Shown: positions 33,253-62,497 of the stretch, one piece after another
Layout of the letters: each line of letters begins with the position of its first letter
Position numbering within the stretch: position 1 is the stretch's first letter
Assembly (NCBI GenBank): GCA_963796915.1
Contig: CAWCNI010000004.1
Span: 2,693,419 to 2,757,418, forward strand
Direction: 5' to 3'
From: Vicinamibacteria bacterium
GTDB lineage: Bacteria > Acidobacteriota > Vicinamibacteria > Vicinamibacterales > JAENWD01
Length of the DNA stretch: 64,000 nucleotides
Notes under the pieces: model-generated
Told to the model about the DNA's origin: nothing
Seen by the model: only the letters and a program-made list of their open reading frames with translations
The model's database searches: none
Program-made: the position numbers and the translations under genes

Positions 33253-33335
33253 GTAGGGCGAATCTTTAGATTGGCCTCCCACCCAGCCGATCTGAGGGTC
33301 GGCCTACAGCCGGCCGATCTAAAGATCGGCCCTAC
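33253..33335. repeat. three tandem palindromic units of the GTAGGGCCGATCT-NN-AGATCGGCC family
   Basis: GTAGGGCGAATCTTTAGATTGGCC (33253-33276), GCCGATCTGAGGGTCGGCCTAC (33286-33307) and GGCCGATCTAAAGATCGGCCCTAC (33312-33335). Confidence 0.85.
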
Positions 33336-33350
33336 AGCCGTCGTATTGAG

Positions 33351-33440
33351 GCACTGCGGCACGAGCACCGCCGCACTTCCGCACTTGAGCACTTCAGCAC
33401 CGCACTGCCGCACCGCAGCACTTCAGCACCGCAGCACTGG
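33351..33440. repeat. GCACTGCGGCAC / GCACTTCAGCAC-type short tandem array
   Basis: GCACTGCGGCACGAGCACCGCCGCACTTCCGCACTTGAGCACTTCAGCACCGCACTGCCGCACCGCAGCACTTCAGCACCGCAGCACTGG. Its reverse complement matches the array at 48178-48261. Confidence 0.8.
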
Positions 33441-33462
33441 ACAAATGCGGTACAAAGAAAAA

Positions 33463-33488
33463 GGGGCGTGTGGTTCACGCCCCCTTTT
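33463..33488. terminator. bidirectional rho-independent terminator (ADOP permease / lpxC convergent junction)
   Basis: Perfect 8-bp stem GGGGCGTG / CACGCCCC with a 5-nt loop. Flanked by AAAGAAAAA on the left and CTTTT on the right. The T-run is better for minus-strand lpxC. Confidence 0.7.
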
Positions 33489-33508
33489 CGCTCTGAAACC
33501 GTCAGCTA

Positions 33509-34677: not shown

Positions 34678-37528
<2,851 letters not shown>

Positions 37529-37621
37529 CGCCTCTCGGTCAGGGACATTGGAGCTGCCCCAAACCTCGAATTGTACCACCGGCGGGTGTTCCGGCGCGCC
37601 AGATCCGAACGGACGAGTTTG

Positions 37622-41665: not shown

Positions 41666-41719
41666 CCGTAGCCCGTAGCCCGTAGCCCGTAGCCCGTAGC
41701 CCTAGCCCGTAGCCCGTTA
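41666..41719. repeat. CCGTAGC heptamer microsatellite (about 7.5 units)
   Basis: CCGTAGC x5, then CCTAGC, CCGTAGC, CCGTTA. Fills the convergent gap and runs into the TAA stop (41717-41719) of the NHL-repeat gene. Confidence 0.9.
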
Positions 41720-42782: not shown

Positions 42783-44094
42783 ATGCTGGTCCGCATGTCG
42801 CGCCGCCGCCTCTGGCCGCTGTGGGTTGCCGTGCTCGTCACGCTCGTCGCCGGGCTTGGCGTGGTGGCGTTCCCGACCTTCTACATCATGCCCTTCCGCC
42901 CGCAGGCGGGAACGGCGATGCAGTGGGCGCTGACGGCGCGGACGTTCGCGCCGATGATCACCGCCGTTACCTCCGTGCTGGCGGTGCTGCTCTCGGCGAT
43001 GCTGGTGCTGCGCCTGCGCCGGTGGTGGAGTCGCGGCCTGGCGCTGCTCGTCGTGCTGCCGATGTTCGCCGGCGCGTGGTTCGCCCGCCAGAACCACTTC
43101 GAGTGGATGTTCAACCCGCTGCCGCAGCCGACCTACAGCGACGCGGCAAAGGCGACCTTCGTCCACGACACCGACGTCGTGATGGCCATCGTCGTCGGCA
43201 AGCAGGCGGTCGCCTATCCGATCCTGCAACTCGCCTATCACCATCTGGTCAACGACGTCGTCGCCGGCGAGCCTGTCGTCGCCACGTATTGAACGCTCTG
43301 CCACACCGGTCTGGTGTGGAGCCGCGCGGTGGGGGGCCGGACGCTGACGTTCCGTCTGGCCGGCATCAACAACCAGAACTTCGTGATGCGCGACGAGCAG
43401 ACCGGCTCGTGGTGGCAGCAGGTGTCGGGCCGGGCGATCGCCGGTCCGCTCAAGGGCCAGCGCCTGACGCTGGTGCCGCACGACGAGTTGACGTTCGCCA
43501 CGTGGAAGACCGAGCAGCCGCACGGGCGGGTGCTCGATCGCGACAAGCGCGCCGTCGCGGACGATGACTATGCCGAGCCCGACTGGGAGGAGCACGTCGG
43601 GCGCTACCCGGTGAAGGTGGCGGTGCCGCCAGGCGGGCCGATCGAGCCGCGCACGATCGTCGTCGGCGTGACCATCGGCGGGAAGAGCAAGGCGTGGCCG
43701 CAGGCGAGCGTGATGTCGGCCGGCGCGACCATCGATCAGATCGGCGACGTGCCGCTGGCGCTCGTCGTCGCGCCCGACGGCCGATCCATCCGCGTCTTCG
43801 ATCGCCGCGTGAACGGCCAGACGCTGACGTTCGTCCGCGCGGGGACGGCAATCGCCACCAGCGCGCTGCTCGATGTCGAGACGATGAGCGAGTGGGACTT
43901 CGAAGGCAGGGCGCAAACGGGCGAGCTGGCTGGCGCGCAGCTCAAGACTGTGGACTACCTGCTCGACTACTGGTTCGACTGGAAGACGTACCACGCCCGA
44001 CACGGTGGTGGTGAAGCCGTGGGAGCCGCCAGCCAAGCGCCGCAAGATGCCGGAGATCCCGCGGCCCGACGGCACGCCAGCGCCCAAGAAGTAA
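42783..44094 (+). CDS. DUF3179-family membrane protein with an in-frame TGA (43290-43292, candidate selenocysteine) and a 1-nt frameshift near 43995
   Basis: ORFs 42783..43292 and 43314..44207 are in the same frame and separated only by the TGA. The sequence reads ...AYPILQLAYHHLVNDVVAGEPVVATY-TGA-TLCHTGLVWSRAVGGRTLTFRLAGINNQNFVMRDEQTGSWWQQVSG..., matching the DUF3179 core as I remember it (TYCPLC...DReTxSxWsQ). Removing the g at 43995 gives ...DYWFDWKTYHPDTVVVKPWEPPAKRRKMPEIPRPDGTPAPKK-TAA (44092-44094). Confidence 0.7.
43301..43319 (+). promoter_or_regulatory. SECIS-like hairpin 8 nt downstream of the in-frame UGA
   Basis: Perfect 7-bp stem CCACACC / GGTGTGG with apical loop GGTCT. The loop starts 15 nt after the UGA. 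The GGUC(U) loop resembles the SelB-binding apical loop of the E. coli fdhF SECIS (GCA-GGUC-UGC). Confidence 0.5.
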
Positions 44095-44112
44095 GGCGGG
44101 CACGACCGAAGC

Positions 44113-44220
44113 CTGTAGGGCCGATCTTCCGCCTTCGCGCGGAGCGCTTTGGCGGACTCGCCATAGCCTTGGCGGAGGCGGTCAGACGGCCATCCCGGCG
44201 CATCTAAAGATGCGCCCTAC
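44113..44220. repeat. composite repeat: a palindromic unit split by a 53-nt structured insert, plus an adjacent GGCGCATCTAAAGATGCGCC unit
   Basis: CTGTAGGGCCGATCTT[CCGCCTTCGCGCGGAGCGCTTTGGCGGACTCGCCATAGCCTTGGCGGAGGCGG]TCAGACGGCC (44113-44191), then GGCGCATCTAAAGATGCGCCCTAC (44197-44220). The insert is ~93% identical to the reverse complement of 62435-62487. Confidence 0.85.
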
Positions 44221-44226
44221 CGACAC

Positions 44227-44317
44227 CCGTAGCCCGTAGCCCGTAGCCCGGAGCCCGGAGCCCGTAGCCCGGAGCCCGGAGCCCGTAGCCCGTAGCCCGT
44301 AGCCCGTAGCCCGTAGC
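44227..44317. repeat. CCGTAGC / CCGGAGC heptamer microsatellite (13 units)
   Basis: Unit order T T T G G T G G T T T T T (T = CCGTAGC, G = CCGGAGC), perfectly phased. Confidence 0.95.
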
Positions 44318-44323
44318 CTGGAG

Positions 44324-44343
44324 GGCCAATCTTTAGATTGGCC
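44324..44343. repeat. palindromic unit GGCCAATCTTTAGATTGGCC
   Basis: 9-bp perfect arms around TT. Lies 8 nt from the HNH gene stop (44352). Confidence 0.85.
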
Positions 44344-44351
44344 AACCCTGC

Positions 44352-44885
44352 CTACGTGTCGTCGAGCTCGACGTTCCAGTACAGGTAGTCTCGCCAGCTG
44401 TCGGGCGCCTGTCGCACGCCGATCGTGAAGCGGACCGCCGGTGCGGAGTCGGGGCGGCGCGGCACCGTCATCAGCCGCATCCCGGCCTCGTCAGGCGTAC
44501 GTCCGCCCTTGCGCCGGTTGCAGGTCACGCAGCAGGTGACGATGTTCTCCCAGTCCTTCCGGCCGCCCTGGGCCACGGGGATGACGTGGTCGAACGTGAG
44601 ATCGCTTGTGTGGAAGGAGTGCCCGCAGTACAGGCAGCGGTGCTTGTCCCGCGCGTAGATGTTGGCGCGGGAAAACGGCACGTAGTCGATCCGTCGTTTG
44701 ATCCGGACGAACCGCAGCAGGCGTATCACCGACGGCAGCTTGAAGCTGACCGAGACGGAGTGCACCTCGCGGTCGTAGACCGAGATCACCTCGACCTTCC
44801 CCTGGCACCACAAGGTGAGCGCCTTGCGCCAGTGGACGACCTTCAGCGGTTCATACGTCGCGTTAAGCAGGAGCGTCTGCTCCAT
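44352..44885 (-). CDS. HNH endonuclease family protein
   Basis: ...RDKHRCLYCGHSFHTSDLTFDHVIPVAQGGRKDWENIVTCCVTCNRRKG (the HNH/CxxC...CxxC zinc finger), with an N-terminal LLLNATYEPLKVV module. Confidence 0.85.
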   Translation of the reverse strand: MEQTLLLNATYEPLKVVHWRKALTLWCQGKVEVISVYDREVHSVSVSFKLPSVIRLLRFVRIKRRIDYVPFSRANIYARDKHRCLYCGHSFHTSDLTFDHVIPVAQGGRKDWENIVTCCVTCNRRKGGRTPDEAGMRLMTVPRRPDSAPAVRFTIGVRQAPDSWRDYLYWNVELDDT

Positions 44886-44978
44886 GCCACAGTATAGTGG
44901 GGACCGGGCGGCGGCCTGTCAAGATACTGGGGTCCTGCCCCCTCCTGCCAGGCCTGCGACGCGCCGATAAGCAGGAAC

Positions 44979-45509
44979 ATGAACGCGCGTGCACTCCTGG
45001 GCATCGCCCTGGGCGCCGTCATCGTCTCGGCGGCCGCCTGCGCGTCCAGCCGGGTGGCCGGGCGCCCGCCGGAGTTGCCGCAGCCGGAAGCCGCGCCGGA
45101 GCCGGCCCCGCTGGTCATCCCGGGGGCTCCTTCGGGCGACGGGTTCACCATCGCGCGCACCGCCCTGCGCCTGCAGGGCATCCCCTACCGGGTCGGCGGC
45201 ACCGACACGCACGGCTTCGATTGCAGCGGCTTCGTGCAGTACGTCTTCGGCCTCTATGGGGTGGCGCTGCCCCGCGTGGTGCGCGACCAGTTCCGCACCG
45301 GCCACCGCGTCGGCCTGGAAGACCTGGAGCCGGGCGACCTGGTATTTTTTTCCACCGCAGGCGACGAGGTGTCGCACGTCGGCATCGTGATTGGCGGCGA
45401 TCGGTTCGTGCACGCGCCGAACTCACGCGGCGTCGTGCGCGTGGACAGCCTGGCGTCCGCCTACTGGGGCGGACACGTGGTGGGCGCGCGGCGGATGAGC
45501 GGGAGTTGA
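44979..45509 (+). CDS. NlpC/P60 (C40) peptidoglycan endopeptidase lipoprotein
   Basis: Lipobox VSAAAC. Catalytic GFDCSGFVQYVF...SHVGIVIGGDRFVHAPNS. Confidence 0.88.
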   Translation: MNARALLGIALGAVIVSAAACASSRVAGRPPELPQPEAAPEPAPLVIPGAPSGDGFTIARTALRLQGIPYRVGGTDTHGFDCSGFVQYVFGLYGVALPRVVRDQFRTGHRVGLEDLEPGDLVFFSTAGDEVSHVGIVIGGDRFVHAPNSRGVVRVDSLASAYWGGHVVGARRMSGS

Positions 45510-45517
45510 TTCGACGG

Positions 45518-45611
45518 CCGTAGCTGGCAGCGAGCGGTGGGCAGCAGGCAGCGAGCGGCCGCTACCCGCCGCATCCTGCCAGCTGCCAGCTGCCTGCGGC
45601 CAGCTGCCGCG
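45518..45611. repeat. GGCAGC / GCTGCC inverted low-complexity repeat (long imperfect hairpin) at a convergent junction
   Basis: The left half CCGTAGCTGGCAGCGAGCGGTGGGCAGCAGGCAGCGAGCGG is G-rich. The right half CATCCTGCCAGCTGCCAGCTGCCTGCGGCCAGCTGCCGCG is the complementary motif. The element begins with one CCGTAGC unit. Confidence 0.75.
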
Positions 45612-45621
45612 ATAAAAGCCG

Positions 45622-48420: not shown

Positions 48421-48426
48421 TTTGGG

Positions 48427-49573: not shown

Positions 49574-49590
49574 GTCAGGTCCTTAGTGAG

Positions 49591-49672: not shown

Positions 49673-49683
49673 GCAGCATGGGA

Positions 49684-49709
49684 CTGTAGGGCCGATCCTC
49701 AGATCGGCC
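49684..49709. repeat. palindromic unit CTGTAGGGCCGATCCTCAGATCGGCC
   Basis: Same family as 33312-33335 and 62308-62331. Arms GGCCGATC / GATCGGCC. Confidence 0.85.
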
Positions 49710-49739
49710 ATCCCCACGCAGAACAACGCCGGGAGCGCG

Positions 49740-50636: not shown

Positions 50637-50739
50637 CCCCCGACTCTACGGGGGCAGGCGAGAACGGTCAAGCGATGCGCGCCGGCCCTCACGCGCAAGG
50701 CGCCGGGGCGAAAAGGCGCACAGTACAGTCAGGCCAGCA

Positions 50740-50765
50740 CTGTAGGGCCAATCTTCAGATTGGCC
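50740..50765. repeat. palindromic unit CTGTAGGGCCAATCTTCAGATTGGCC
   Basis: Same family. Arms GGCCAATCT / AGATTGGCC. Confidence 0.85.
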
Positions 50766-50793
50766 ACGACACCGACGCCCTGTATAGAAGTTC

Positions 50794-50850
50794 GCGTAGC
50801 CCCGGAGCCCGGAGCCCGGAGCCCGTAGCCCGTAGCCCGTAGCCCGTGAG
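50794..50850. repeat. CCGGAGC / CCGTAGC heptamer microsatellite (about 8 units)
   Basis: GCGTAGC-C-(CCGGAGC)x3-(CCGTAGC)x3-CCGTGAGC. Ends 1 nt before the stop (50851) of the ABC permease gene. Confidence 0.9.
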
Positions 50851-51807
50851 CTACTGTCCTCCCTCCGCGACGATGTTCGTGAGCAGCGTGACGACGAAGA
50901 TCGCCACCGCCGGCGCAAGCAGCCACGGAAACGCGGCGAGCGCAGGGCCGGTGGCTTCCTGCAGCGCCGTCCCCCAGCTGGGCACGCGGTCGGGCAGGCC
51001 CAGGCCGATGAACGACAGCGTCGCCTCGGCGAGCACGAACGCGGGAACGAGCAGCGCCGCCTGGCGCGCCACGAAGCCGAAGGACGCCGGCAGCAGGTGC
51101 AGGCGCAGCACGCGCCACGGCGACGCGCCGAGCGCGCGCGCGGCTTCGGCGTGCGCCATCGCGTTCTCCGCCGCGACGATCGGCCGCACGCCGCGCGCGA
51201 TCCACGGCGCGCCGGCGACGGCGAGCAGCGCGATCAGCGCCGCGACGACGGCCGGCGTCGGCAGCACGATCGGCAGCGCCGCACGGAGCGTGACGACCAG
51301 GTAGATCGCCGGCAGCACGGCGATGACATCGGCGACGCGCATCAGGAGCGCAGCCAGCCAGCCGCCGCGGGCACCGGCGATGCCGCCAATCGCAAGCCCG
51401 ATCAGCACCGCGCCGGCGACGGCGCCGAGCGCGATCCCCAGCGATGCGCGCGCGCCGTAGACGAGACGCGCGAAGACGTCGCGGCCCGACCTGTCGGCGC
51501 CGAGCAGCAGGAGCGGCGCGTCGGGATCGCCAGCGTCGCTGACGAGGCGTCCGCTGGCGAAGAATGTCACCGGCACGTCCACGCCGGCGTCTTCGCGGTA
51601 TTGCTGGCTGAGACGATCGACCAGGCGCTGCGGATGAAAGTACGGCGCGCGCCAGTGGCCCGCGGCGTCGCGGAGCCGCACGACGGTGGGCGGCGCGTAC
51701 GGCGCGTCGGCGAACGGCGTATCGGGCGCGTGCGGCGCCACGACCGGCGCGGCAATCGACGCGATCACAATCGCACCGAGCAGCGCCGCACCGAGCGCGC
51801 GCGTCAT
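50851..51807 (-). CDS. ABC transporter permease (DppC/OppC-like)
   Basis: Start MTRALGAALLGAIVIASIAAPVVAP (ATG 51807-51805, ATGA overlap with the upstream stop). ...GADRSGRDVFARLVYGARASL... and the EAA-loop-like AHAEAARALGASPWRVLRLHLLP. Confidence 0.85.
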   Translation of the reverse strand: MTRALGAALLGAIVIASIAAPVVAPHAPDTPFADAPYAPPTVVRLRDAAGHWRAPYFHPQRLVDRLSQQYREDAGVDVPVTFFASGRLVSDAGDPDAPLLLLGADRSGRDVFARLVYGARASLGIALGAVAGAVLIGLAIGGIAGARGGWLAALLMRVADVIAVLPAIYLVVTLRAALPIVLPTPAVVAALIALLAVAGAPWIARGVRPIVAAENAMAHAEAARALGASPWRVLRLHLLPASFGFVARQAALLVPAFVLAEATLSFIGLGLPDRVPSWGTALQEATGPALAAFPWLLAPAVAIFVVTLLTNIVAEGGQ

Positions 51808-52787
51808 GCGGCCCTGCCTTCGGCGGAGGCGCCGGGCGACGTGATGCGCGGGTCGGCCCACGCGATCACCAGGTCTGCCGCGAGCAGCCCCAGTCCGAGC
51901 AGCAGCGTGCCGGCGGCCGCGCACCCGGCGACCAGGTTCAGATCGCGATGCAGGAGCGCGTCGAACGTCAGGCGGCCCAGCCCGGGCCACGCCGTGACGA
52001 TCTCGACCACGAACGACCCGCTGAGCAGCGCGCCGAACGCCAGCCCCGCCACCGCCGCGACGGGCTTCACGGAGAGCCGCCAGGCGTGGTGGACCATCAC
52101 GCGCGCCGGCGGGATGCCACGCGCCCGCGCCGCCTGCACGGCGGGATGCCGGAGCGCTTCGCCCAGCGCCTGCGCCTGCAGCCGCTCGAACGTCGCCGCC
52201 AGCGGTAATGCGAGCGCCAGGACCGGCAGCGGCAGGTGCCAGACGACATCGCGCACGTACGCGAGTCCGGACAGGCCAGCCGCCGACGTCATCCCGCTGG
52301 CGGGAAACCACCCGGTGCGCAGCGCGAGCAGCACCAGCGCCAGCGACCCCACGAACGGCGGAATCGAGAGCAGCACCAGCGAGACGATGCGGATCGCGTG
52401 CGCCAGCAGCGACCGCGGCCGTGTCGCGGAGAGAAACGCCGGAGGGATGCCGAGGATCAGCGCGACGAGCAGTGCCGTCACTGCCAGGATCGCCGTGTGC
52501 CCCGCGCGCGACGCGACCAGCGGGCCAGCCGGCTGCTGGTAGAGCGTGGAGTCGCCGAGATCGAGCCGGGCGACGCCGCCGATCCACGACGCCCACTGCG
52601 CGACGAGCGGGCGATCGAGGCCGGCCTGCGATCGCGCGCGCGCGATCCGCTCCCGCGACGCGCCGAAGCCGCCCGCGATCTCCGCCGCGTCGCCGGGCGC
52701 CAGCCGCGTCAGGACGAAGGCGCCGGACGACACCAGCAGCACGAGGAGGAGCGTCGAGCCGAGGCGCCGCAGCAGGTGGCCGATCAT
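51804..52787 (-). CDS. ABC transporter permease (DppB/OppB-like)
   Basis: MIGHLLRRLGSTLLLVLLVSSGAFVLTRLAPGD... and AARARGIPPARVMVHHAWRLS (EAA loop). Confidence 0.85.
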   Translation of the reverse strand: MIGHLLRRLGSTLLLVLLVSSGAFVLTRLAPGDAAEIAGGFGASRERIARARSQAGLDRPLVAQWASWIGGVARLDLGDSTLYQQPAGPLVASRAGHTAILAVTALLVALILGIPPAFLSATRPRSLLAHAIRIVSLVLLSIPPFVGSLALVLLALRTGWFPASGMTSAAGLSGLAYVRDVVWHLPLPVLALALPLAATFERLQAQALGEALRHPAVQAARARGIPPARVMVHHAWRLSVKPVAAVAGLAFGALLSGSFVVEIVTAWPGLGRLTFDALLHRDLNLVAGCAAAGTLLLGLGLLAADLVIAWADPRITSPGASAEGRAA

Positions 52788-52839
52788 CAGGATGGCATCC
52801 GGTCGGGGCCGATGATACCGGGTGCGCGGCCGGCGCGCG

Positions 52840-54584
52840 CTATGGCGCCGCCGGCGTCACGTACAGCTCGTCTGCCGCCCACAGCACCGGCGGCGTCGTC
52901 GGCGTGGGCTTCGCGCCGCCGACGCGGCGGCCGGTGGCGACGAACACGCGCGGCGCGGCGAAGTAGAGCGCCGGGTTGTGCGTCAGGAACAGCCGCTGGA
53001 CGTCGGTGAAGAGCGCCACGCGCTCCGTGCGGCTGGCGCTGGCCGCCTGCTGCGCCATCAGCGTGTCGATCTGCGCCTCCCACGGCGTGGCCGGCGTCTT
53101 CTGCGATGGATGCCACAGGTGCATGCCGCCGGAGCTGAGCCACCAGTCCAGGTTCGTCGCCGGATCGGTGTCGCTCGGCGTGGCGTGGTGGTAGATCGCG
53201 TCGAAGTCGCCCTCGCCCCATCGCTTCATGACGCCGCCGAGGTCCATGGCGACCACGTCCACCGCGACGCCGACCGGCGCGAGCTGGTCGCGGATGAACT
53301 GCGCGCCCTTCTCCCCCGCCGTCACGCCGGCCTGCACGAGGATCGTGATGCGCGCCGGGTGCCCCGCAGCGTCCTCGCGCACGCCGTCCTCGTTGCGATC
53401 GACCAGGCCCATCGCGTCGAGCAGCGCCGAGGCCTGCTTCGGGTCGAAGGGCGGAGGCTGGAGCCCGGTGGGCAGCCACTCGTGATTGGCCGCCGGCACC
53501 GCGAACGGCGACGCCTCCGCGGCGCCGAGATAGACGGAGTCCACGAAGCCCTGCCGGCTCACCGCCAGCGACACCGCCTGGCGGAACCTGTCGTCGAGGA
53601 GGAACGCGTGCGGACTGTCCTTGGCCGCCGCCAGGTTGAACCACAGTAGATAGCGGTCGAAGCCCCCTCCGAGATCGACCAGGTGCACCTTGCCGGCGTC
53701 TGCCGCGGCCTTCATCTCGCGATAGTCGTCGGGCCGCAGTTGCGTCTGCGTCAGATCGACCTGGCCGCCGGCCAGGCGCAGGAGCTCGGTGTTCTGGTCC
53801 GGCGCGATCTCCAATGTCAGCGTGTCCAGGTACGGGAGCGCGCGGCCCTCGCCGTCCTTCCGCCAGTAGTGCGGGTTGCGCACGAGCACGACGCGCTCGG
53901 CCGGCGTGTAGGACTGCGACCAGGAACGGGCCGAGCCCCGGCATCTCCGCCGGCGGCGTCTGCGGGCCCCAGGCGCTGCCGAACGTGCCGGCGGCCAAAG
54001 CGGCGCTGAGCGCGTGCTTGGGATAGATCGGCAGCGCGTCCAGCAGGCGGACGCCCGGCGCGTACGGCTTGTCGAAGTTGAGGACGACGCGGAGCGGCGA
54101 TTCGGCGTGGACGGCAATCGGCGCGTTGCCGACGCGGACCACGTCGGTCATCACGTTGTCGAAGTGCGCGTCCAGCGCCGCCGCAAACGAGAACGTCACA
54201 TCGTCTGCCGTGAACGGGCGTGCCGTCGGACCAGACAACGCCAGGGCGCAGATCGAGCGTGATGGTGCGGGTGTCCGGCGACACCGTCCACGCGGCAGCG
54301 AGCCATGGCTCCGGCGTGTCGGTGACGCGGTTCACGCGGACCAGGCGTCCGGCGGTGAGCAGCGCGATCAGATCGGTGGGGAAGGCGTTGCTCGCGTAGC
54401 GGTTGAAAGTCTTCGGCTCGCCGCGCATCGTGGCAACAAGCGCACCGCCTTTTGCCGGCTGGTCCTGTGTAGCCGAACGCGACGGTGATGAAGGGGGTCC
54501 CCCCGGTCGAACGTAATAAACGCCAACACCAAGAGCGACCAACAGCAGGGCCAGTGGAGCCCAGCGGCGCGAATTCCCGGTCAC
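52840..54584 (-). pseudogene. ABC transporter substrate-binding protein, family 5 (peptide/nickel), interrupted by two 1-nt frameshifts near 54215 and 53917
   Basis: Three consecutive frames carry one protein: ORF 53817..54584 (signal plus ...VVWSDGTP), ORF 52787..54238 (FTADDVTFSFAAAL...GLGPFLV) and ORF 52840..54117 (QSYTPAERVVLVRNPHYWRKDGEG...). The joins read SDGTP|g|FTADDV and PFLV|g|QSYTP. Confidence 0.8.
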
Positions 54585-54814
54585 GATCCTGGCCGACCGG
54601 CCAATCCGTTGGCCGGTGAAGAAGGGCGTTTATGGCTGAGGCTTTTCACGATTCACCGTGTTTTTGTGCAAACCCTGCACGCTAACGCTATTGGCGGTCA
54701 ATGCGTTGACCGATAGGGCGGCGTTACTTAACCGGTAACTCCCGACCCCTTCGAGGCCGCCATCCTACCTGAAATCAACAACTAACGAGCTCCGCCCGCG
54801 CGGGCCGCCGGCGA

Positions 54815-54829
54815 TGGTACCCACCCTGC
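54815..54829 (+). promoter_or_regulatory. candidate sigma-54 (-24/-12) promoter upstream of the HTH-S8 operon
   Basis: TGGTAC-CCACC-CTGC matches TGGCAC-N5-TTGC, with the invariant GG and GC at the correct 10-nt spacing. It lies 32 nt upstream of the ATG at 54861 and just before a GGAGG-rich RBS. A sigma-54 activator is encoded 4.6 kb downstream. Confidence 0.3.
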
Positions 54830-54860
54830 CACTACAGGAGGCGGGGAGGACTATTTCCGG

Positions 54861-55100
54861 ATGTCACAGGCCGCTCAGCCATCACCTGCCGCAGACCCAC
54901 GGGTCGGGCGCAGCGTGTCCATCGATCAGGCTGCTGAACTTCTCGGCGTCTCTCGTCGGACGGTTTACAACCGCATTCGCGACGGGCGCCTGGCCACCAT
55001 CCGGACATTGGGCGGTTCGCAACGCGTGTTGCTCGAGTCACTCGCGCGTTCGGCCGCATGGATTCGCCCGCTCGTGTCGGAATTCGGAGGCAGACAATGA
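54861..55100 (+). CDS. excisionase-family/MerR-type helix-turn-helix DNA-binding protein
   Basis: SIDQAAELLGVSRRTVYNRIRDGRLATIRTLGGSQRVL (HTH_17-like). The stop TGA (55098-55100) overlaps the ATG (55097-55099) of the S8 peptidase gene. Confidence 0.75.
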   Translation: MSQAAQPSPAADPRVGRSVSIDQAAELLGVSRRTVYNRIRDGRLATIRTLGGSQRVLLESLARSAAWIRPLVSEFGGRQ

Positions 55101-56881
55101 CGACGCTTAAGGGACGGCACCAGGTGGCGGCAGCCTTGGTAGGAGCTGTCGTGGCGTTTGGCGTGACCGTGACGGCAGAGGGGGGCCCGCGTGCGCGGCT
55201 GTCCCGCGACCTCTCCGACGCGCTCACACGTGGAGGCGCGGCGACGCGCGATGTCATTCTGCAGGCCGACGCGACGACCGTGGCGGCGGTGGCCGCGCGG
55301 CACGGCGCGCAGGTGAAGAAGTGGCTGACGACCGGCGCTGTCCTCTCGGTGAGCGACGCCAACCTGGGCGGCCTGACGGCTGACGCCGCCGTCGACCACC
55401 TGTCCGGCGACACCTTCGTGCACTCGATGATGGCGGTGACCGACCAGGCGATTGGCGAGGACCAGGTGCTGGCCGGGCTCAAGGGCATCGGGCCGGTGAG
55501 CGGCCGCGGCATCGGCATCGCGCTGATCGATTCCGGCGTCTCGAACCACGTGGCGCTGAAGGGCCACATCGCGGCGGCGCTGGACTTCACGGAGGCGGGC
55601 GGCAAGGGCGTGGACGAACTGGGCCACGGCACGCACGTGGCGGGGATTATCGGCGGCGAGGACGCGGACTTCCGCGGCGTGGCGCCGGGCGCGTGGATCG
55701 TGAGCCTGAAGGTGCTGAGCGCTGACGGCTCGGGCCGGACCAGCGACGTGATCAACGCGATCGACTGGGCGGTCTCGCACAGCCGGCAGTACGGCATCCG
55801 GGTGATCAACCTGTCGCTGGGGCGGCCGGTGTTCGAGTCGTACCTGGACGACCCGCTGTGCCAGGCGGTGGAGCGCGCGTATCGCGCCGGGCTGCTGGTG
55901 GTGACCTCGGCGGGCAACTACGGGATGACGCAGGACGGGCAGAAGGTGCTGGGCGCGATCACCGCGCCGGGCAACTCGCCGTACGCCTTCACGGTGGGCT
56001 CGCTCGACAGCCAGAACACCGTCACGCGCTCCGACGACGTGGTGTCCGACTACAGCTCGCGCGGGCCGACGCTCTACGACCGGCTGGTGAAGCCGGACAT
56101 CGCGGCGCCGGGGCGGAAGATCGTCTCGCTCTACAACGAGGGCTCGACGCTGGCGGTGCGGTATCCCGACCACCTGGTGAGCGGCAGCGGGAAGACGGGG
56201 CTGTTCTACCTGAGTGGCACGAGCATGGCGACCGGCGTGGTCAGCGGCGCGGCGGCGCTGGTGCTGGAGACCAACCCGAAGCTGACGCCGCTCCAGGTGC
56301 GGGTGGCGCTGCAGATGTCGGCGTCGTTCATGCCGGACGCCGGCCTCATCGGCGCGGGCGCGGGCGAGCTGAACGTGGCGGCGGCGGTGAAGCTGGCGAA
56401 GACGGGGCCGTCGGTGCAGCGGGTGTCGACGGTGATTGCCGGCGAGCCGGTCCAGTCGAGCGGTGTCGTAACAGGCGACTCGACGGTGTGGGGAAGCGGA
56501 CGTTCAATCGTCCGCGGCGCCAACACGATCGTGTGGGGAAACTCCAACACCATCGTCTGGGGTAATAGCGCGAACACTATTGTCTGGGGCAACACCATTG
56601 TCTGGGGCAACACGATCGTGTGGGGAAACTCGAACACCATCGTTTGGGGGAACTCCAACACCATTGTCTGGGGCAACACCATTGTCTGGGGCAACACCAT
56701 CGTTTGGGGGAACTCCGCCGACACGATCGTTTGGGGAAACGCACTCATGAATACGATCGTCTGGGGGAACAGCCTGGACACCATCGTCTGGGGCAATACG
56801 ATCGTCTGGGGCAACACCATCGTTTGGGGCAATTCAGCGGACACCATCGTCTGGGGTAACACGATCGTCTGGGGCAACTAG
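55097..56881 (+). CDS. secreted S8 (subtilisin-family) serine peptidase with 16 C-terminal TIVWGN repeats
   Basis: Signal peptide and I9-like propeptide. Catalytic triad contexts IALIDSGV, HGTHVAGII and GTSMATGVVSGAAAL. The C-terminal 119 aa consists of TIVWGN units. Confidence 0.9.
   Translation: MTTLKGRHQVAAALVGAVVAFGVTVTAEGGPRARLSRDLSDALTRGGAATRDVILQADATTVAAVAARHGAQVKKWLTTGAVLSVSDANLGGLTADAAVDHLSGDTFVHSMMAVTDQAIGEDQVLAGLKGIGPVSGRGIGIALIDSGVSNHVALKGHIAAALDFTEAGGKGVDELGHGTHVAGIIGGEDADFRGVAPGAWIVSLKVLSADGSGRTSDVINAIDWAVSHSRQYGIRVINLSLGRPVFESYLDDPLCQAVERAYRAGLLVVTSAGNYGMTQDGQKVLGAITAPGNSPYAFTVGSLDSQNTVTRSDDVVSDYSSRGPTLYDRLVKPDIAAPGRKIVSLYNEGSTLAVRYPDHLVSGSGKTGLFYLSGTSMATGVVSGAAALVLETNPKLTPLQVRVALQMSASFMPDAGLIGAGAGELNVAAAVKLAKTGPSVQRVSTVIAGEPVQSSGVVTGDSTVWGSGRSIVRGANTIVWGNSNTIVWGNSANTIVWGNTIVWGNTIVWGNSNTIVWGNSNTIVWGNTIVWGNTIVWGNSADTIVWGNALMNTIVWGNSLDTIVWGNTIVWGNTIVWGNSADTIVWGNTIVWGN
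56522..56878 (+). repeat. coding tandem repeat: 16 x TIVWGN with 0-4-aa linkers
   Basis: NTIVWGN SNTIVWGN SANTIVWGN TIVWGN TIVWGN SNTIVWGN SNTIVWGN TIVWGN TIVWGN SADTIVWGN ALMNTIVWGN SLDTIVWGN TIVWGN TIVWGN SADTIVWGN TIVWGN, then stop. The core hexapeptide is invariant while third codon positions vary (ATC/ATT, GTC/GTG/GTT, GGC/GGA/GGG/GGT). Confidence 0.95.
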
Positions 56882-56924
56882 GCGAACGCAGGGCGTGCGC
56901 CATAGCACCTTTCGCCTTTTTTTT
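56881..56924 (+). terminator. rho-independent terminator after the S8 gene
   Basis: GGCGAA...TTCGCC stem enclosing a GC-rich internal hairpin, followed by T8 (56917-56924). Confidence 0.6.
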
Positions 56925-57023
56925 GCGGATCAAACATGCAGCCTATAATCGTCTGGTCCTGACAAGCCGATAAACGTCGGTATGGGGTAACCCCGCCTTA
57001 GCGGGGACCGACCCTCTTGACCA

Positions 57024-59405
57024 ATGGCGCCCGCGAATCCGCTATCGCCTCACGGCCGAACATACGTCATCGGCGTCATCACTGCCGGTACGTTCGCGGT
57101 GGCAGCAGCGGTGGCGCAACTAGTCGCGACGCCTCCTCGCAGCGGGTGGTTCCTGTTTGCCGCGTTGACCGTGATCAGCGGCTCCGCCACCGTTAAGCTG
57201 CCCTCGATTCCGGCATCTCTTTCTGTATCCGAAGCCTTCGTCTTCGCTTCCGTCCTTCTATACGGTCCCGCTGCCGGTACGATAATCGTAGCGCTGGACG
57301 GTCTGATCATCTCGTTCTGGCTCAACAAGAAACGCAAGGAGGTCCATCGCGTACTGTTCAATATGGCGGCTCCCGCGCTCTCCATCTGGATTGCCAGCCA
57401 ACTGTTTTTCATCATGCTGGGGCTCGAGCCACTTAGTGTGTCTCATGCCCCGATCGAAAAGTTTCTATTACCCCTTATTGTTTTTACGGTTCTGTACTTC
57501 GGTCTGAATAGCTCGCTAATTGCGTTTGCGGTTGCCGCTGAAACCCAGGCATCCGCGTTCCAGGTATGGAAGAACAATTTCCTCTGGCTGTCACTCAACT
57601 TCATCTGCGGCGCTTCCGTTGCTACCCTAGTCATCGCCTTTACGAACAGGCAACGGCCAGAGTGGCTGTACATTGGCGCGATTGTCCCATTGTTATTTGT
57701 TCTGTACATGACATACAGAACGGCGATGGCCAGAGTCGAAGACGCCAACAAGCACCTATCGCAAGTAAACACCTTATATCTATCGACAATTGAAACGTTG
57801 GCAATGGCGATCGACGCTAAAGACCAGGTTACCCACGGTCATATCCGCAGGGTCCAGGCGTTCGCGACCGGGTTGGCGCGTTCTCTCGGAGTGACGGAAA
57901 CCGCCACGCTTCATGCTGTTGAGGCGGCCTCTCTGTTGCACGACATGGGAAAGCTCGCGATCCCTGAGCACATTTTGAACAAGCCTGGTAGGTTGACTAC
58001 ATCCGAGTTCGAAAGGATGAAGCTTCACGCCGCCATAGGGGCGGACATTCTGTCAGCGATTCAGTTTCCGTATCCGGTAGTGCCGATTGTTCGGCATCAT
58101 CACGAGAACTGGGATGGCACAGGTTACCCTGACGGGCTATCAGGGACTGACATTCCAGTCGGCGCGCGAATTTTGTCGGTTGTGGACTGCTACGATGCGT
58201 TGACTTCGGATCGGCCGTACCGTCCGGCACTTTCAAACGACGAGGCAATTAAGATTCTGCTCGAAAGACGCGGCTCAATGTATGACCCGTTGGTTGTTGA
58301 TACATTCGTGCGAGTTCACAACTCAATCGGGCCAGATCTAGAGATCTATCGGACCGCGCCACAAGTAATCCGAGACATTGCAAAAAGTATCGCGGTTCCG
58401 CAAGTTGCTTCAGACGCTAGCGATGTACTGAGGCTTGGCGACCAGTCGGAAAAACTATTGGTCTTTGCGTCTCTACTCAGCAATATCCCAGGGCATGTCG
58501 GAAGTATAGATATTGCCGAGTTGAGCTGGTATCACTTGCGGCAGATGATGCCAGTTACGTCACTGGGACTGTTTGGTTACGATAACGCGACCGACGAGAT
58601 CGTTTGTCTGGCGTTCATTGACCCGTCCGGTCCTGTCAACCTGCGAATGAGACGTCCCGTAGGGCAGGGACTCTCGGGTTGGGTTGCCGCTAGCAGGCAA
58701 GGAATCTTCAACTCGGATCCCATGTTGGATTTGGGCCAGGGCGCCATCAAGTCGGCATTTTCGCTGAGAAGCGCCATTAGTGCTCCCCTGGTGATGGACG
58801 AGCAACTGGTCGGGGTACTAACTATGTATGCGGACGTGCCTGCGGCCTACAGCGAGCGTCACCTTGAGCTTCTTAGTATTCTTGGACCTCGTCTCGGAAA
58901 CGCCCTCCAGAGGTCTCGGCAATTTGATGAGGACACGGGAGCTCAGCTCTGGGACGCTTCCACGGGTCTGCCAAACGATCGACATCTACGTCAGTACCTT
59001 TCCGGGCTTCCAGGACGCGGCCTCAACGCCAGCACTTCATTGCTCCTTGTTTCTCTCGATGGCGCAACCTCGCAACGGGACGATCGAGCCGAGGTCGCTC
59101 TAAAAGGGGTTGCCCAGGCGATAAAATCTTCATTGAGACTCGGCGACCTGCTATTCCGCCTTCAACATGACGAGATCCTGTGCGTCTTGCATGGAGCGGA
59201 CGCGATGACCGCTCATTTGGTCTTGCTGCGCGTCACCGAGGCGCTCTCGCTTGGCCTGCGGGACCAGTCTGAGGGAGTCGCCCTGTCAACCGGAGTTGCG
59301 ACTCCGCCTATCGACGGCCGAAACCTAGATGAGCTGGTGCGCTCAGCCCGTTCTCGCCTGGTGCCCGTAAGTTCTGGGTTGATAACTTATCAGCGACCGA
59401 GCTAG
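57024..59405 (+). CDS. membrane-anchored HD-GYP phosphodiesterase with GAF and degenerate GGDEF (I-site-retaining) domains
   Basis: About 7 N-terminal TM helices. HD-GYP: THGHIRRV...LLHDMGKLAIP...HHHENWDGTGYPDGL...DCYDALTSDRPYR. GAF-like: ...GQGLSGWVAASRQGIFNSD...LVGVLTMYA. GGDEF-like end with RLGD-LLFRL-QHDEI in place of RxxD-x5-GG(D/E)EF. The gene is visibly lower in GC than its neighbours. Confidence 0.85.
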   Translation: MAPANPLSPHGRTYVIGVITAGTFAVAAAVAQLVATPPRSGWFLFAALTVISGSATVKLPSIPASLSVSEAFVFASVLLYGPAAGTIIVALDGLIISFWLNKKRKEVHRVLFNMAAPALSIWIASQLFFIMLGLEPLSVSHAPIEKFLLPLIVFTVLYFGLNSSLIAFAVAAETQASAFQVWKNNFLWLSLNFICGASVATLVIAFTNRQRPEWLYIGAIVPLLFVLYMTYRTAMARVEDANKHLSQVNTLYLSTIETLAMAIDAKDQVTHGHIRRVQAFATGLARSLGVTETATLHAVEAASLLHDMGKLAIPEHILNKPGRLTTSEFERMKLHAAIGADILSAIQFPYPVVPIVRHHHENWDGTGYPDGLSGTDIPVGARILSVVDCYDALTSDRPYRPALSNDEAIKILLERRGSMYDPLVVDTFVRVHNSIGPDLEIYRTAPQVIRDIAKSIAVPQVASDASDVLRLGDQSEKLLVFASLLSNIPGHVGSIDIAELSWYHLRQMMPVTSLGLFGYDNATDEIVCLAFIDPSGPVNLRMRRPVGQGLSGWVAASRQGIFNSDPMLDLGQGAIKSAFSLRSAISAPLVMDEQLVGVLTMYADVPAAYSERHLELLSILGPRLGNALQRSRQFDEDTGAQLWDASTGLPNDRHLRQYLSGLPGRGLNASTSLLLVSLDGATSQRDDRAEVALKGVAQAIKSSLRLGDLLFRLQHDEILCVLHGADAMTAHLVLLRVTEALSLGLRDQSEGVALSTGVATPPIDGRNLDELVRSARSRLVPVSSGLITYQRPS

Positions 59406-59434
59406 TTTAGGGGCTCACCCGAGGAGTCCCCCCT

Positions 59435-62227
59435 ATGGCAGGCGTTCCGATGCTGCGATCGTTGGAGCAGAGCCTTCAGCTCGGGCGATTTGTCGACGTT
59501 CTCACTTCCTTAAAGACCAACCTTCAGGCCGGTGGCCTCGAGCGCGACGCGATCGCTGCTGAGGTATGCGCGCTGGCCGGACGATCCGCGGAAGCAAAGA
59601 TTGCGGCTGAGAGGCTCGTGTCCGATGCCAGGACGTCAGTCGACCTGGCACTCCGGGCTCGTCTGGTCTTGGCACAGTTGCAGATCGACGCCGGGCAGGC
59701 TCGGGCGGCTCACTCACTATTGCAGGCGATCGCGTCGGAGGCCACCTCGGCTCGAGCCTGGAAACTTCGGTGCTGGGCTGAGCTATGGCAATTGACGGCT
59801 CTCGGCGAGTTTGCCGGCCCAGCTGAAATCCGCGCCCTGTTGAAACAAGTCAGGCACCACGTGAATCAGCTCGGCGATCCGATGACGACCGTCGCTCTTC
59901 ACTTGTTTGTTGCCGAAGCCGAGAGCAGACGGGGTGTTATTGACTCGTCGGTCGAGCATGTTCGGATAGCGAGGTCGCTGCTTGAAGGTTCTCCGAATTA
60001 TTGGCTTGAGGGCCTCGCGGCCATCGATTCGCTATGTCTCGCGTACATGCGGTCAGATCCGGATCTCGCGAAGCAAGAGAGCGAACGAGCCGTTCGCGCC
60101 GCCTACGAAGCCGGGGCGGAAAAGACAAAGCTCGCTGCGGTAGCGAATTCGGCGACGCTCGCGCTGACTGCCGGCGACCTCGATATCGCTGAGCGAGACT
60201 TCACCGCTGCTCTTCGTCTCGCAAGTGTGGCGCCTCGGTGGAGGTCGTCGATCGTTGATGGGCTCTGCCAAGTTCACCTTGCTCGTGGCACTCCTCGTTT
60301 GGCGATCGAACGGTTCGAGGATTCTTCCGACGGTCAGGCCGACTCTCTATCGTACCAGGCGCTTTGGCCGAGACTCACCCAGGCTAGGGCACGACTCGCC
60401 GCGGGTGACATGGCGCGTGTCCGTTCGGACATCAAGGTGGTCCTTTCGGATGCTCGTCGGGTCGGCGACCGCGAGTTGTCGATGCGGCTCTTGCTTCTCG
60501 ACGCCGAGGCAGCCTCGAGGGAACGCGAGCCGGCGATTGCTAGTCTCAGCCTTCAGGCCGCCGACTTCGAGCATCCTGATCCCTCACTGGAATTGGTTGC
60601 TGAGTACAGCCGAGTGTGCGGACTGCTGATGGCGGTCAGCCATCCGTTCATCGCGGCGACTTCCGCCAGGAGAAGCCGGCGGATTTTTACGGCGATTGGT
60701 CACACGCGGGCGGCCAACGAGGTCAACATTCCCTCAACGCCAGGCAAGGTGGCTCCCCTGAATCTAATCGCTGACCTTGCCGGAGTCGTGACAAGTAACG
60801 TCGCTGCTGCGTTTCAACAGGCCTCACGTCCAGATCTATTTGGCGCAGAACTCTCCGATCTCCTGATCGACGTGGGCGCCGCGCGTTCGGTTGCGATCCT
60901 GACGCGAGACGCTCGAGACGTCGTCCGCGTCGTCACAACGCGCGGCTGGTCAGAGTCGGCCGCGCTCGCGGCGGCGCGCGCGGTGCCGGCGCTTCCCACT
61001 CTTCCCCTGGGCGAATGGCGCAACCAGCACTGGAGCCTCCTCGTCGACGTCCTGCCAACACCCGCCGCGAGCTCGGCGTTCGTCGCAGTGCGCACGCTCG
61101 CCGCTTGCAGCCTGACGGTCAACGCCGCGAGGCGCGACGAACGGGAACGGGCGGCGCTCTGGCCCGTCGATCCCGTTGAAGACTCGACGCACGGCGTCTT
61201 TGTGGCCTCGTCGATGATTGAACTGATCAAGACGATCCGCCAGGTCGCCGACACGCCAGTCACAGTGCTGCTCACCGGCGAAACCGGCACCGGCAAGGAC
61301 ATCCTCGCCCGGCTGGTCCACGAGTATTCGCGCCGCGCCACCAAGACGTTCACGCCCTTCTGCTGCACGGCGGTGCCGCGCGAGATGCTCGACAGCCAGC
61401 TGTTCGGACATCGGCGTGGGGCCTTTACTGGCGCTCAGGAGCAGGCGCCTGGCGTCATCAGAGGCGCACAGGGCGGCACGTTGTTCCTCGATGAAATCGG
61501 CGAGCTCGCGCCCGAAGCGCAGGTGAAGCTGCTCCGCTTCCTCGAGTCCCATGAGGTGCACCCGATCGGGGAATCACACCCGGTGCAGGTCGACGTCCGG
61601 GTCGTGGCGGCGACGAATCGCGATCTGCCGACGCTGATCAAACAGGGCGCGTTCCGGGAAGACCTCTACTACCGACTCAACGTCGTCCCACTACGGGTCC
61701 CGCCATTGCGAGAGCGGCGCGAGGAGATTCCGCGGCTTGTCGACTTCTACCTGTCGAAGTTCGGACCGCAGTTTCACAAGGGCCAGCTCACTGTCTCGCC
61801 GGAGGCATTGGAATATCTGCTGCTCTATTCGTGGCCTGGCAACGTGCGCCAGCTCGCCAACGAGCTGCGGCGCGTTGCGGTCCTCGCGGAAGTGGACGCC
61901 GTCATCTCACCAGCGCACCTGACGCCCGACTTGCTCGCCTCGCGGACGACGGCGCCCGCCGCGGATGACGAGATGCTGCCCACCGAGATGAAGATCCGGA
62001 CGAATCAAACCTTGTCGGCGGCAACCGACGAGCTCGAGCGTCAAATGATCCGTCGCGCCCTCACGCTGTGCGATGGCCACGTCGATCAGGCCGCGCAGCT
62101 GCTGGGGCTGTCACGTAAGGGTCTCTATCTCAAACGCCAGCGCCTCGGGATCGACCCGGTACCGGACAGTGATGGCCCCGCACAGCCGCCGCCTTCCGGC
62201 GGCTCGGACGAAGGTCTGCCCGACTGA
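59435..62227 (+). CDS. sigma-54-dependent transcriptional activator (bEBP) with a ~560-aa helical/TPR-like N-terminal domain
   Basis: AAA+ core VLLTGETGTGKDILA (Walker A), GAFTGA loop (HRRGAFTGA), GGTLFLDEIGEL (Walker B), RVVAATNRDL, EDLYYRLNVV, WPGNVRQL. C-terminal Fis-type HTH DQAAQLLGLSRKGLYLKRQRLGI. No receiver, PAS or GAF domain recognised in the N-terminus. Confidence 0.9.
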   Translation: MAGVPMLRSLEQSLQLGRFVDVLTSLKTNLQAGGLERDAIAAEVCALAGRSAEAKIAAERLVSDARTSVDLALRARLVLAQLQIDAGQARAAHSLLQAIASEATSARAWKLRCWAELWQLTALGEFAGPAEIRALLKQVRHHVNQLGDPMTTVALHLFVAEAESRRGVIDSSVEHVRIARSLLEGSPNYWLEGLAAIDSLCLAYMRSDPDLAKQESERAVRAAYEAGAEKTKLAAVANSATLALTAGDLDIAERDFTAALRLASVAPRWRSSIVDGLCQVHLARGTPRLAIERFEDSSDGQADSLSYQALWPRLTQARARLAAGDMARVRSDIKVVLSDARRVGDRELSMRLLLLDAEAASREREPAIASLSLQAADFEHPDPSLELVAEYSRVCGLLMAVSHPFIAATSARRSRRIFTAIGHTRAANEVNIPSTPGKVAPLNLIADLAGVVTSNVAAAFQQASRPDLFGAELSDLLIDVGAARSVAILTRDARDVVRVVTTRGWSESAALAAARAVPALPTLPLGEWRNQHWSLLVDVLPTPAASSAFVAVRTLAACSLTVNAARRDERERAALWPVDPVEDSTHGVFVASSMIELIKTIRQVADTPVTVLLTGETGTGKDILARLVHEYSRRATKTFTPFCCTAVPREMLDSQLFGHRRGAFTGAQEQAPGVIRGAQGGTLFLDEIGELAPEAQVKLLRFLESHEVHPIGESHPVQVDVRVVAATNRDLPTLIKQGAFREDLYYRLNVVPLRVPPLRERREEIPRLVDFYLSKFGPQFHKGQLTVSPEALEYLLLYSWPGNVRQLANELRRVAVLAEVDAVISPAHLTPDLLASRTTAPAADDEMLPTEMKIRTNQTLSAATDELERQMIRRALTLCDGHVDQAAQLLGLSRKGLYLKRQRLGIDPVPDSDGPAQPPPSGGSDEGLPD

Positions 62228-62307
62228 TAGTGATGGCCTGAGTCATCCGCATGCGGACGGATGCCGGCCGAGCCGTTCCGGTCGCGCGTCCACAGATGCA
62301 GCCGAAT

Positions 62308-62418
62308 GGCCGATCTAAAGATCGGCCCTACCGATGCGGGTGGGCGGCGGATCTGCAGATGGGCCTTCTAGCGGCCTCGCTCTGTATCGTTCCGGTAGGG
62401 CGCATCTTCAGATGCGCC
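62308..62418. repeat. three palindromic units of the GGCCGATCT-NN-AGATCGGCC family
   Basis: GGCCGATCTAAAGATCGGCCCTAC (62308-62331), the degenerate GGCGGATCTGCAGATGGGCC (62346-62365) and GTAGGGCGCATCTTCAGATGCGCC (62395-62418). Confidence 0.85.
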
Positions 62419-62423
62419 GGAGT

Positions 62424-62497
62424 GGCCGATCTAACCGCCTCCGCCAAGGCTACGGCGAGTCCGCCGAAGCGCTCCGCGCAAAGGCGGAAGATCGGCC
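62424..62497. repeat. palindromic unit split by the 53-nt structured insert (inverted copy of 44113-44191)
   Basis: GGCCGATCTAA[CCGCCTCCGCCAAGGCTACGGCGAGTCCGCCGAAGCGCTCCGCGCAAAGGCGG]AAGATCGGCC. Ends 13 nt before the HlyD gene stop. Confidence 0.85.

Follow-up and report, generated by a model that had tools for sequence, protein, structure and literature searches.

Repetitive extragenic palindromes (REPs) of Escherichia coli stabilize upstream mRNA, and the SMAG repeats of Stenotrophomonas are REPs of the GTAG superfamily. The REPIN/RAYT system of Pseudomonas fluorescens (REPIN, REP doublet forming hairpin; RAYT, REP-associated tyrosine transposase) was reportedly described by Bertels and Rainey in 2011. 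A survey of the GTAG superfamily by Di Nocera, De Gregorio and Rocco in 2013 took an unpaired GTAG as the defining tag and included the REPs of E. coli (PMC3733652). In these repeats, G+C-rich stems of 6-13 bp show complementary variation and the loop is TY in many families, short-stem TY-loop families being known from Pseudomonas and Xanthomonas; families with long self-complementary loops also exist, for example in Bradyrhizobium and E. coli, as do degenerate heads of the GGAG or GTCG sort (PMC3733652). GTAG REPs occur as singletons, dimers and clusters, prefer convergent or unidirectional intergenic regions and are occasionally intragenic; their surveyed hosts are Proteobacteria, Cyanobacteria, Chloroflexi and the PVC group, and their roles are summarized in the same work (PMC3733652). 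As for the enzymes, the TnpA_REP proteins of E. coli, S. maltophilia and Marinomonas bind GTAG along with the hairpin into which a single strand folds, and they cut next to the REP at CT (or CA); group 3 TnpA_REP enzymes recognize perfect palindromes, with GTAG helping to choose the cleavage site (PMC8266576). Here we describe a palindromic unit that recurs in a 64,000-nt stretch of contig CAWCNI010000004.1 of a Vicinamibacteria bacterium (hereafter the window). We conclude, with a probability of roughly 85%, that its copies are GTAG-superfamily REPs, that is, non-autonomous elements presumably mobilized by a RAYT; their membership among the REPs, taken by itself, is held with high confidence. 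The unit is a new member of this class in an uncultured soil bacterium, and the kind of system is already known.

The unit spans 24 nt and consists of a GTAG head, a perfect or near-perfect G+C-rich stem of 9 bp and a two-nucleotide loop, TT or TC. The window, whose G+C content is 64-73% over most of its length, contains 13 units at six loci: eight are clear, two degenerate, two have a long loop and one lies inside the trmFO gene. All but one of the 13 fall in the second half of the window, and the two strands carry about six each. With up to two mismatches, the pattern GGCCRATCTNNAGATYGGCC has eight matches, where shuffles that preserve dinucleotides predict 0.01. Nine sites, seven of them belonging to the family of the unit, were returned by a structural scan in which GTAG is followed by a stem of 7-10 bp (at most one mismatch) and a loop of 2-6 nt, compared with 0.4 in first-order Markov controls. 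The head reads GTAG in seven of the eight strong units and in one long-loop copy; the remaining heads are GGAG or GTCG.

A covariance model (R1) was built on 51 distinct units and run unfiltered over the window. It recovered eight full-length matches with E<1e-5, starting at 33253 (+), 33335 (-), 44220 (-), 44320 (+), 49686 (+), 50742 (+), 62331 (-) and 62395 (+), and weaker ones at 4483-4500 (E 1e-4), 33285-33307 (E 0.006) and 62346-62365 (E 0.32); the scores of window units are partly circular, as these units are included in the model. No additional copies were found with R1 over the whole window. Predicted single-stranded DNA folds of single units range from -4.4 to -9.8 kcal/mol, with z values down to about -5, and positions 33251-33337 are predicted to form one long hairpin in which the first unit pairs with the third (-24.7 kcal/mol, z -5.2). 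Mixed-orientation clusters occupy 33253-33335, 44113-44343 and 62308-62502, and we saw in them no recurrent linker of the type found in bacterial interspersed mosaic elements (BIMEs). A search of the window against Rfam yielded nothing at gathering thresholds, lax thresholds giving sub-threshold chance matches only, and the window contains no tRNA genes.

The arms of the unit change together. Within the window the stems are GGCCGATCT/AGATCGGCC, GGCCAATCT/AGATTGGCC and GGCGCATCT/AGATGCGCC, together with GGCGAATCT/AGATTGGCC, which has one mismatch. An initial annotation of this stretch, made from the letters alone, had listed copies of the unit and proposed three arm variants with preserved pairing: every listed site is present to within 2 nt, and the three variants are complementary on both arms. 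It had further taken the compensatory changes as a sign of selection on a hairpin, a cruciform or a dimeric binding site, and such changes are borne out by the units of the window, of relatives and across metagenomes. In the relatives L105 and L106 (the prefix L denotes loci fetched for comparison), which share ~75-86% nucleotide identity with the window over 33.5-44 kb, the units read GTAGGGCCGAACT-tc-AGTTCGGCC and GTAGGGCCGAGCT-tc-AGCTCGGCC where those of the window have ATCT..AGAT, both arms being changed.

Copies also occur outside the window: scanning metagenomes with GTAGGGCCGANCTNNAGNTCGGCC retrieved at least 120 stretches carrying the unit, chiefly from soil and rhizosphere. Among the metagenome matches listed, the free stem pair of this pattern (two positions) is complementary in 126 of 134 units, and three more have T/G. 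A collection anchored on GTAGGG alone contained the unforced variants GGCGCAACT/AGTTGCGCC (five units), GGCGCGACT/AGTCGCGCC (three units) and GGCGGAACT/AGTTCCGCC. The loop is TC or TT in 130 of 161 units. Across the 51 distinct units, both-sided changes affect four of the nine pairs, in 52 cells, and the covariation score of 0.326 (shuffled, 0.083) was reached by none of 500 shuffles; slid registers give at most 0.043. An earlier collection scan had used no GTAG head, and many of its matches, among those listed, arose by chance inside coding sequence of unrelated phyla.

A second line of evidence comes from orthologous loci in relatives. In L231-L233, whose LpxC is 96% identical, the LpxC/MacB convergent junction is also present; ~140 nt holding all three REPs of this junction (locus A, window 33205-33347) are missing there, and the terminator of LpxC and a GTGCTGAA-type 8-mer array are kept. 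L235 encodes a DHDPS-family protein 90% identical to that of the window and is syntenic with window 40.8-58 kb over 17 kb, at ~86% nucleotide identity, and it contains no unit of the family described here. At locus B, the two stop codons and the (GTAGCCC)n array are conserved in L235; REP 44320-44343 stands out against it as a clean insertion of 36 nt, and unrelated sequence takes the place of the segment that carries REP 44197-44220 and a long-loop copy. L235 also has neither the REP nor the adjoining array of locus D. Altogether, the comparison covered four of the five intergenic loci: syntenic relatives are without REPs at three, and at the fourth 1.3 kb of unrelated sequence stands instead. 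Because flanking genes, terminator and neighboring arrays mostly persist where REPs are missing, the alignments indicate that each unit comes or goes as a discrete piece, and does so over short evolutionary times. The polymorphism between related genomes that the initial annotation had envisaged is therefore found.

A third line of evidence links the stem to a transposase. In an Acidobacteriota metagenome-assembled genome (MAG; L100), the open reading frame (ORF) at 4475-5059 on the minus strand matches the Y1_Tnp family PF01797 (E 5e-9), and its best solved relative is TnpA_REP of E. coli (4er8). This RAYT ORF is bracketed by three GTAG-T-GGCCGATCT REPs (4398-5062) and has ~1,500 homologues, some of which are named 'REP element-mobilizing transposase RayT' by the Joint Genome Institute (JGI). 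A second RAYT homologue, P0224 (L227/L228, JGI metagenome contigs), is likewise REP-bracketed (L227 391-1037); around RAYT P0164 (L229), a flanking REP was not found under the criteria used. The identical GTAG-headed stem GGCCGATCT-TY-AGATCGGCC, with an additional base between it and GTAG, occurs in many Acidobacteriota MAGs as GTAG-T-GGCCGATCT, and the form GTAG-G-GGCCGATCT is found in the Eremiobacterota MAG MFD05705.bin.2.76 (L099). Besides L100 and L227, the loci listed with the extra-base stem are L005, L020, L029, L031, L046, L052, L095 and L099. When a motif regular expression and a RAYT hidden Markov model (HMM) were run over the window and the fetched loci, L100 was the sole match, and the source contig of the window is not among the hosts of the best 120 of the ~1,500 RAYT homologues. 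As for the RAYT that the initial annotation had suggested looking for, same-stem REPs flank RAYT genes in L100 and L227/L228, and no RAYT is encoded in the window.

Several observations weigh against the assignment of the window units to RAYT-mobilized GTAG REPs. The units used for covariation were pre-selected for at least seven of nine pairs, most of them with a pattern fixing seven pairs, which inflates the paired percentage; the informative part of these data is the count of both-sided changes at free positions. Neither the window nor 608 kb of metagenome stretches with the window-type unit gave a RAYT match to an HMM of 120 homologues, a result to be expected if each RAYT gene has hundreds of REPs. 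The REPs flanking RAYT genes carry one extra base between GTAG and stem and the window units do not; therefore, the RAYT link is one of close analogy, not of identity. The indels between relatives could be deletions rather than insertions. Finally, a dominant REPIN arrangement or spacing is absent across 51 adjacent pairs of units, of which 14 are heads-out, 17 heads-in and 20 tandem. The initial annotation had described structured, possibly mobilized palindromes of REP/BIME type at gene 3' ends, and this description is supported by covariation, spread, polymorphism and RAYT flanking.

By analogy with the described systems, the units would fold into hairpins on single-stranded DNA or in a transcript, and a putative cognate RAYT would process the folded units on single-stranded DNA. 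Such activity would spread and reshuffle them into singletons, inverted doublets and clusters. Units would come and go in non-essential DNA 3' of genes and persist mainly where neighboring genes converge or run in one direction and a hairpin would be harmless; transcribed units may additionally protect mRNA 3' ends. We have moderate confidence that a RAYT of the same genome drives the window units. If the units are RAYT-dependent, the source genome would hold hundreds of mostly extragenic copies and one or a few RAYT genes with GTAGGGCCGA-type flanks.

The gene context bears on the best of the alternatives, namely that the units are host RNA elements under selection, acting as factor-independent terminators or 3'-end mRNA stabilizers rather than as mobile DNA. 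Genes were called from third-position G+C and Pfam matches. All intergenic units lie 3' of genes, at three convergent and two co-directional junctions, and divergent regions of the window contain no REP unit. The convergent junctions are MacB-type permease/LpxC (33204/33509), DUF3179/HNH (44095/44352) and sigma-54 activator/HlyD-family (62227/62511); the co-directional, tail-to-head ones are 49279-49739, at the 3' end of the DHDPS-family gene, and 50637-50850, at the 3' end of an OppC-like permease gene. The six convergent, two tail-to-head and no divergent regions counted in the initial annotation are reproduced if the array-only regions 41654/41717, 45509/45622 and 48165/48427 are included. 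A position of all intergenic copies 3' of stop codons, chiefly at convergent junctions, is what an RNA element would show, as is compensatory change that keeps the stem, and the stabilization of upstream mRNA by E. coli REPs offers a precedent.

A role as terminators is less easily reconciled with the sequences that follow the stems (GGCC-tcccac, GGCC-atcccc, GGCC-acgaca). The units are not classical intrinsic terminators, because no T-tract follows any of them, and a terminator scan of 44000-63000 lists no REP unit. LpxC has its own classical intrinsic terminator at ~33455-33490 (- strand), a GGGGCG...CGCCCC hairpin followed by TTTTT, which adjoins the REP cluster, is separate from it and is kept in the close relatives L230-L233. 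Moreover, orthologous junctions of relatives are without units, the orientation of units relative to the upstream gene is inconsistent, and the asymmetric GTAG head would have no role in a plain RNA hairpin. An RNA effect is plausible as a secondary role of some copies and weak as a sole explanation, and we regard the RNA-element account as unlikely overall.

The long-loop form bears on a further alternative. The copies at 44113-44192 (+) and 62423-62502 (-) are one element of ~80 nt, in which REP arms surround an inner palindrome of ~55 nt in the same orientation relative to the head; the inner 55 nt at 44128-44182 are 94.5% identical to those of the 62423-62502 copy. The first copy has its GTAG head at 44115-44118, starts 18 nt past the DUF3179 stop codon and folds at -25.7 kcal/mol; the second, with the head GTCG, ends 8 nt short of the HlyD-family stop codon and folds at -30.6 kcal/mol (z -6.1). 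Copy number is low: besides the two in the window, copies were found in L191 (1031-1106), L146 (9567-9645) and L118 (738-817). All five share the core TCCGCCTTCGCG...GGCGGAC.CGCC..AGCCTTGGCGGAGGCGG, which has no Rfam match, and their consensus is a hairpin of 31 pairs with both-sided changes at five pairs. In each copy the outer stem agrees with the REP variant nearby (ATCT, GCATCT, GACCT or GAACT, each with its complementary partner). Long-loop REPs as a type have precedent, and this core was matched to no described one.

An element of ~80 nt with terminal inverted arms resembles a MITE (a miniature transposable element with inverted repeats), and one could suppose that the units are such elements, or their remnants, moved by a classical non-RAYT transposase, or else targets or footprints of insertion sequences (ISs). 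The indel polymorphism of the units would suit this supposition, and REPs are known as IS targets (PMC3733652). The alternative nevertheless appears very unlikely to us: no target-site duplications were found flanking the short units or the long-loop form, units of 24 nt are far below MITE size (50-500 bp), a GTAG head on a short perfect stem is a RAYT-type signature, and the sole transposase found beside such units is a Y1/HUH enzyme. That the units are operators of a dimeric DNA-binding protein, a regulon of duplex sites, is suggested by the perfect inverted repeat with a 2-nt center and is scarcely credible, given sites that lie at the 3' ends of genes, none of them in a divergent promoter region, pairing kept while the sequence changes (which favors a folded strand over a fixed duplex sequence), a one-sided conserved head, clustered and tandem copies with 80-nt long-loop versions, and sites missing at the orthologous loci of relatives.

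Two extensions of the RAYT-mobilized REP interpretation can be put forward jointly, and as a pair we consider them doubtful. The first is horizontal, cross-phylum spread of RAYT plus REP among soil phyla rather than convergence, because the same GTAG-headed stem (GGCCGATCT-TY-AGATCGGCC) is present in Acidobacteriota MAGs, an Eremiobacterota MAG and the high-G+C lineage of the window, and flanks RAYT genes in the Acidobacteriota. The second, independent of it, is that the 80-nt long-loop form might be a distinct element, either a cargo-carrying REP or a structured RNA, because the 55-nt core stays conserved across contigs and the outer stem varies with the REPs nearby.

The individual short copies are as follows. 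In the LpxC junction, GTAG-GGCGAATCT-tt-AGATTGGCC at 33253-33276 (+; 8/9 pairs, 33.2 bits) forms the outer arm of a doublet with the canonical GTAG-GGCCGATCT-tt-AGATCGGCC at 33312-33335 (-), which has a perfect stem (41.3 bits); between these arms lies the degenerate GTAG-GCCGACCC-tc-AGATCGGC at 33285-33307 (-; 16.5 bits, E 0.006). Downstream of the DUF3179 gene, the canonical GTAG-GGCGCATCT-tt-AGATGCGCC at 44197-44220 (-; 38.3 bits) shows a CG->GC swap on both arms. The mutated-head copy GGAG-GGCCAATCT-tt-AGATTGGCC at 44320-44343 (+; 27.1 bits), the clean 36-nt insertion relative to L235, had been entered in the initial annotation as a copy; it is present, and its head is GGAG, not GTAG. At 49686-49709 (+), 30 nt 3' of the DHDPS-family stop codon, GTAG-GGCCGATC-ctca-GATCGGCC has an 8-bp stem and a 4-nt loop (-9.8 kcal/mol, z -5.1; 37.7 bits). 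The canonical GTAG-GGCCAATCT-tc-AGATTGGCC at 50742-50765 (+; 38.3 bits) lies 3' of the permease gene and is not in L235.

In the junction near the end of the window, canonical units occur at 62308-62331 (-; GTAG-GGCCGATCT-tt-AGATCGGCC, 41.3 bits) and 62395-62418 (+; GTAG-GGCGCATCT-tc-AGATGCGCC, 38.7 bits). The headless palindrome GGCGGATCT-gc-AGATGGGCC at 62346-62365, to which no strand is assigned, can pair with 62395-62418; it had also been counted as a copy, and it exists as a weak one, with 7/9 pairs and no head (11.1 bits, E 0.32). The earlier list of copies was incomplete in one respect, as the copy in trmFO lay outside the range that it covered. This intragenic REP, GGAG-CGCCGATCT-tc-AGATCGGCC at 4478-4505 (-; 21.8 bits), sits in a 35-residue in-frame insertion of TrmFO (- strand, 4451-4555; peptide ...SADLQIGQ...) relative to the solved TrmFO 3g5q. 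The insertion falls between 3g5q residues 183 and 184, which are adjacent in structure.

The REPs share intergenic space with tandem arrays of 7-9 nt units, which lie at 5119-5168, 5209-5259, 33364-33438, 41666-41717, 44226-44318, 45576-45608, 48173-48260, 48313-48419, 49598-49671 and 50795-50851. Their units are diverse, including (AAATGAA)7 facing (TTCATTC)7, the GCACTTCA type, (CCCGTAG)13, (AGGGCCAAG)8 and others. In ~670 kb of the lineage we counted 84 arrays of 7-9 nt units, period 7 being the commonest, and GCACTTCA arrays also occur in L126 and L150. Because arrays are kept at orthologous sites without REPs, we treat them as separate, and they look like an independent lineage feature occupying the same intergenic space. 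The combination of REPs with other array types into mosaics, as proposed in the initial annotation, therefore holds in part. We also considered whether the (GTAGCCC)n heptamer arrays are REP derivatives or RAYT-dependent, and rejected this as a general rule: most array units are without GTAG, and arrays persist where REPs are absent. A different repeat, a ~45-nt palindrome (GGGGTCAGACGCTGTTAAGGCGCAAGCGGTTGCTTAACAGCG) unrelated to the GTAG units, occurs twice downstream of LpxC in L106 (10897-11006).

With regard to the neighboring genes, the ORF 43314-44207 appears to read through the long-loop REP. This ORF was rejected as the true gene: a frameshift near 43990 splits it, as indicated by the collapse of third-position G+C, the continuation of DUF3179 in another frame and the stop context kept in L235, and the stop codon is really the TAA at 44093-44095. 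Conserved genes are split between frames at several places in the window, namely trmFO at ~4340, DUF3179 at ~43990, UvrA at 34678-37579, an aminotransferase at 48317-49573 and a permease at 50851-52856, and split genes of the same sort occur in L105 and L106. These are probably indel errors of long-read assembly rather than pseudogenes; therefore, ORF-based annotation is unreliable near the frameshift points. Separately, the region 56000-62000 has a G+C content of 57-65%, against ~68%, and is possibly acquired DNA; a gene within it holds many repeats of an 18-nt period (56521-56878, ACCATCGTCTGGGGCAAC-type).

Our results add uncultured and abundant soil lineages to the known range of the GTAG REP class. 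They provide a natural example of compensatory stem evolution, of unit turnover between genomes 4-15% diverged and of long-loop derivatives. REP units and tandem arrays account for the oversized convergent intergenic regions of this genome; both mark likely assembly and synteny breakpoints and are possible markers for strain typing. No new mechanism is involved, and specialist interest lies in the same stem found across phyla, the clean cases of presence and absence and the long-loop derivative.

How closely the window units resemble the described systems differs from one system to the next. Like the REPINs of P. fluorescens, they include an inverted pair (33253-33335) predicted to form a long hairpin, and they have RAYT-linked copies in other genomes; unlike REPINs, window-type units mostly look like singletons or members of mixed clusters. 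With the REP/BIME system of E. coli they share GTAG-tagged extragenic palindromes in clusters of alternating orientation and, for same-stem REPs of other genomes, a link to a Y1/HUH enzyme of the type that recognizes the folded single strand plus GTAG (PMC8266576), 4er8 being the nearest solved relative of the RAYT of L100. The REPs of E. coli are longer, and their palindromes are imperfect and include an essential bulge, whereas the window units are perfect and in this resemble the group 3 class (PMC8266576). E. coli BIMEs, in turn, have Y/Z units and linkers of defined kinds and sites to which host proteins bind, and no such recurrent linker was seen in the window. The initial annotation had called the unit unrelated to enterobacterial REPs, which is wrong in one respect, as the unpaired GTAG head is a hallmark shared across the superfamily, including E. 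coli REPs (PMC3733652).

The likeness is greatest to the GTAG superfamily as a whole. The window stem GGCCGATCT and its variants were matched to no published family, in a comparison that did not include the consensus sequences of the survey. Same-stem units occur in MAGs of Acidobacteriota and Eremiobacterota, phyla outside the list of hosts in that survey (PMC3733652). With the superfamily the window units share the GTAG end, the G+C-rich stem and its covariation, the TY loop, occurrence as singletons, dimers and clusters, intergenic sites 3' of genes, an intragenic copy and long-loop variants.

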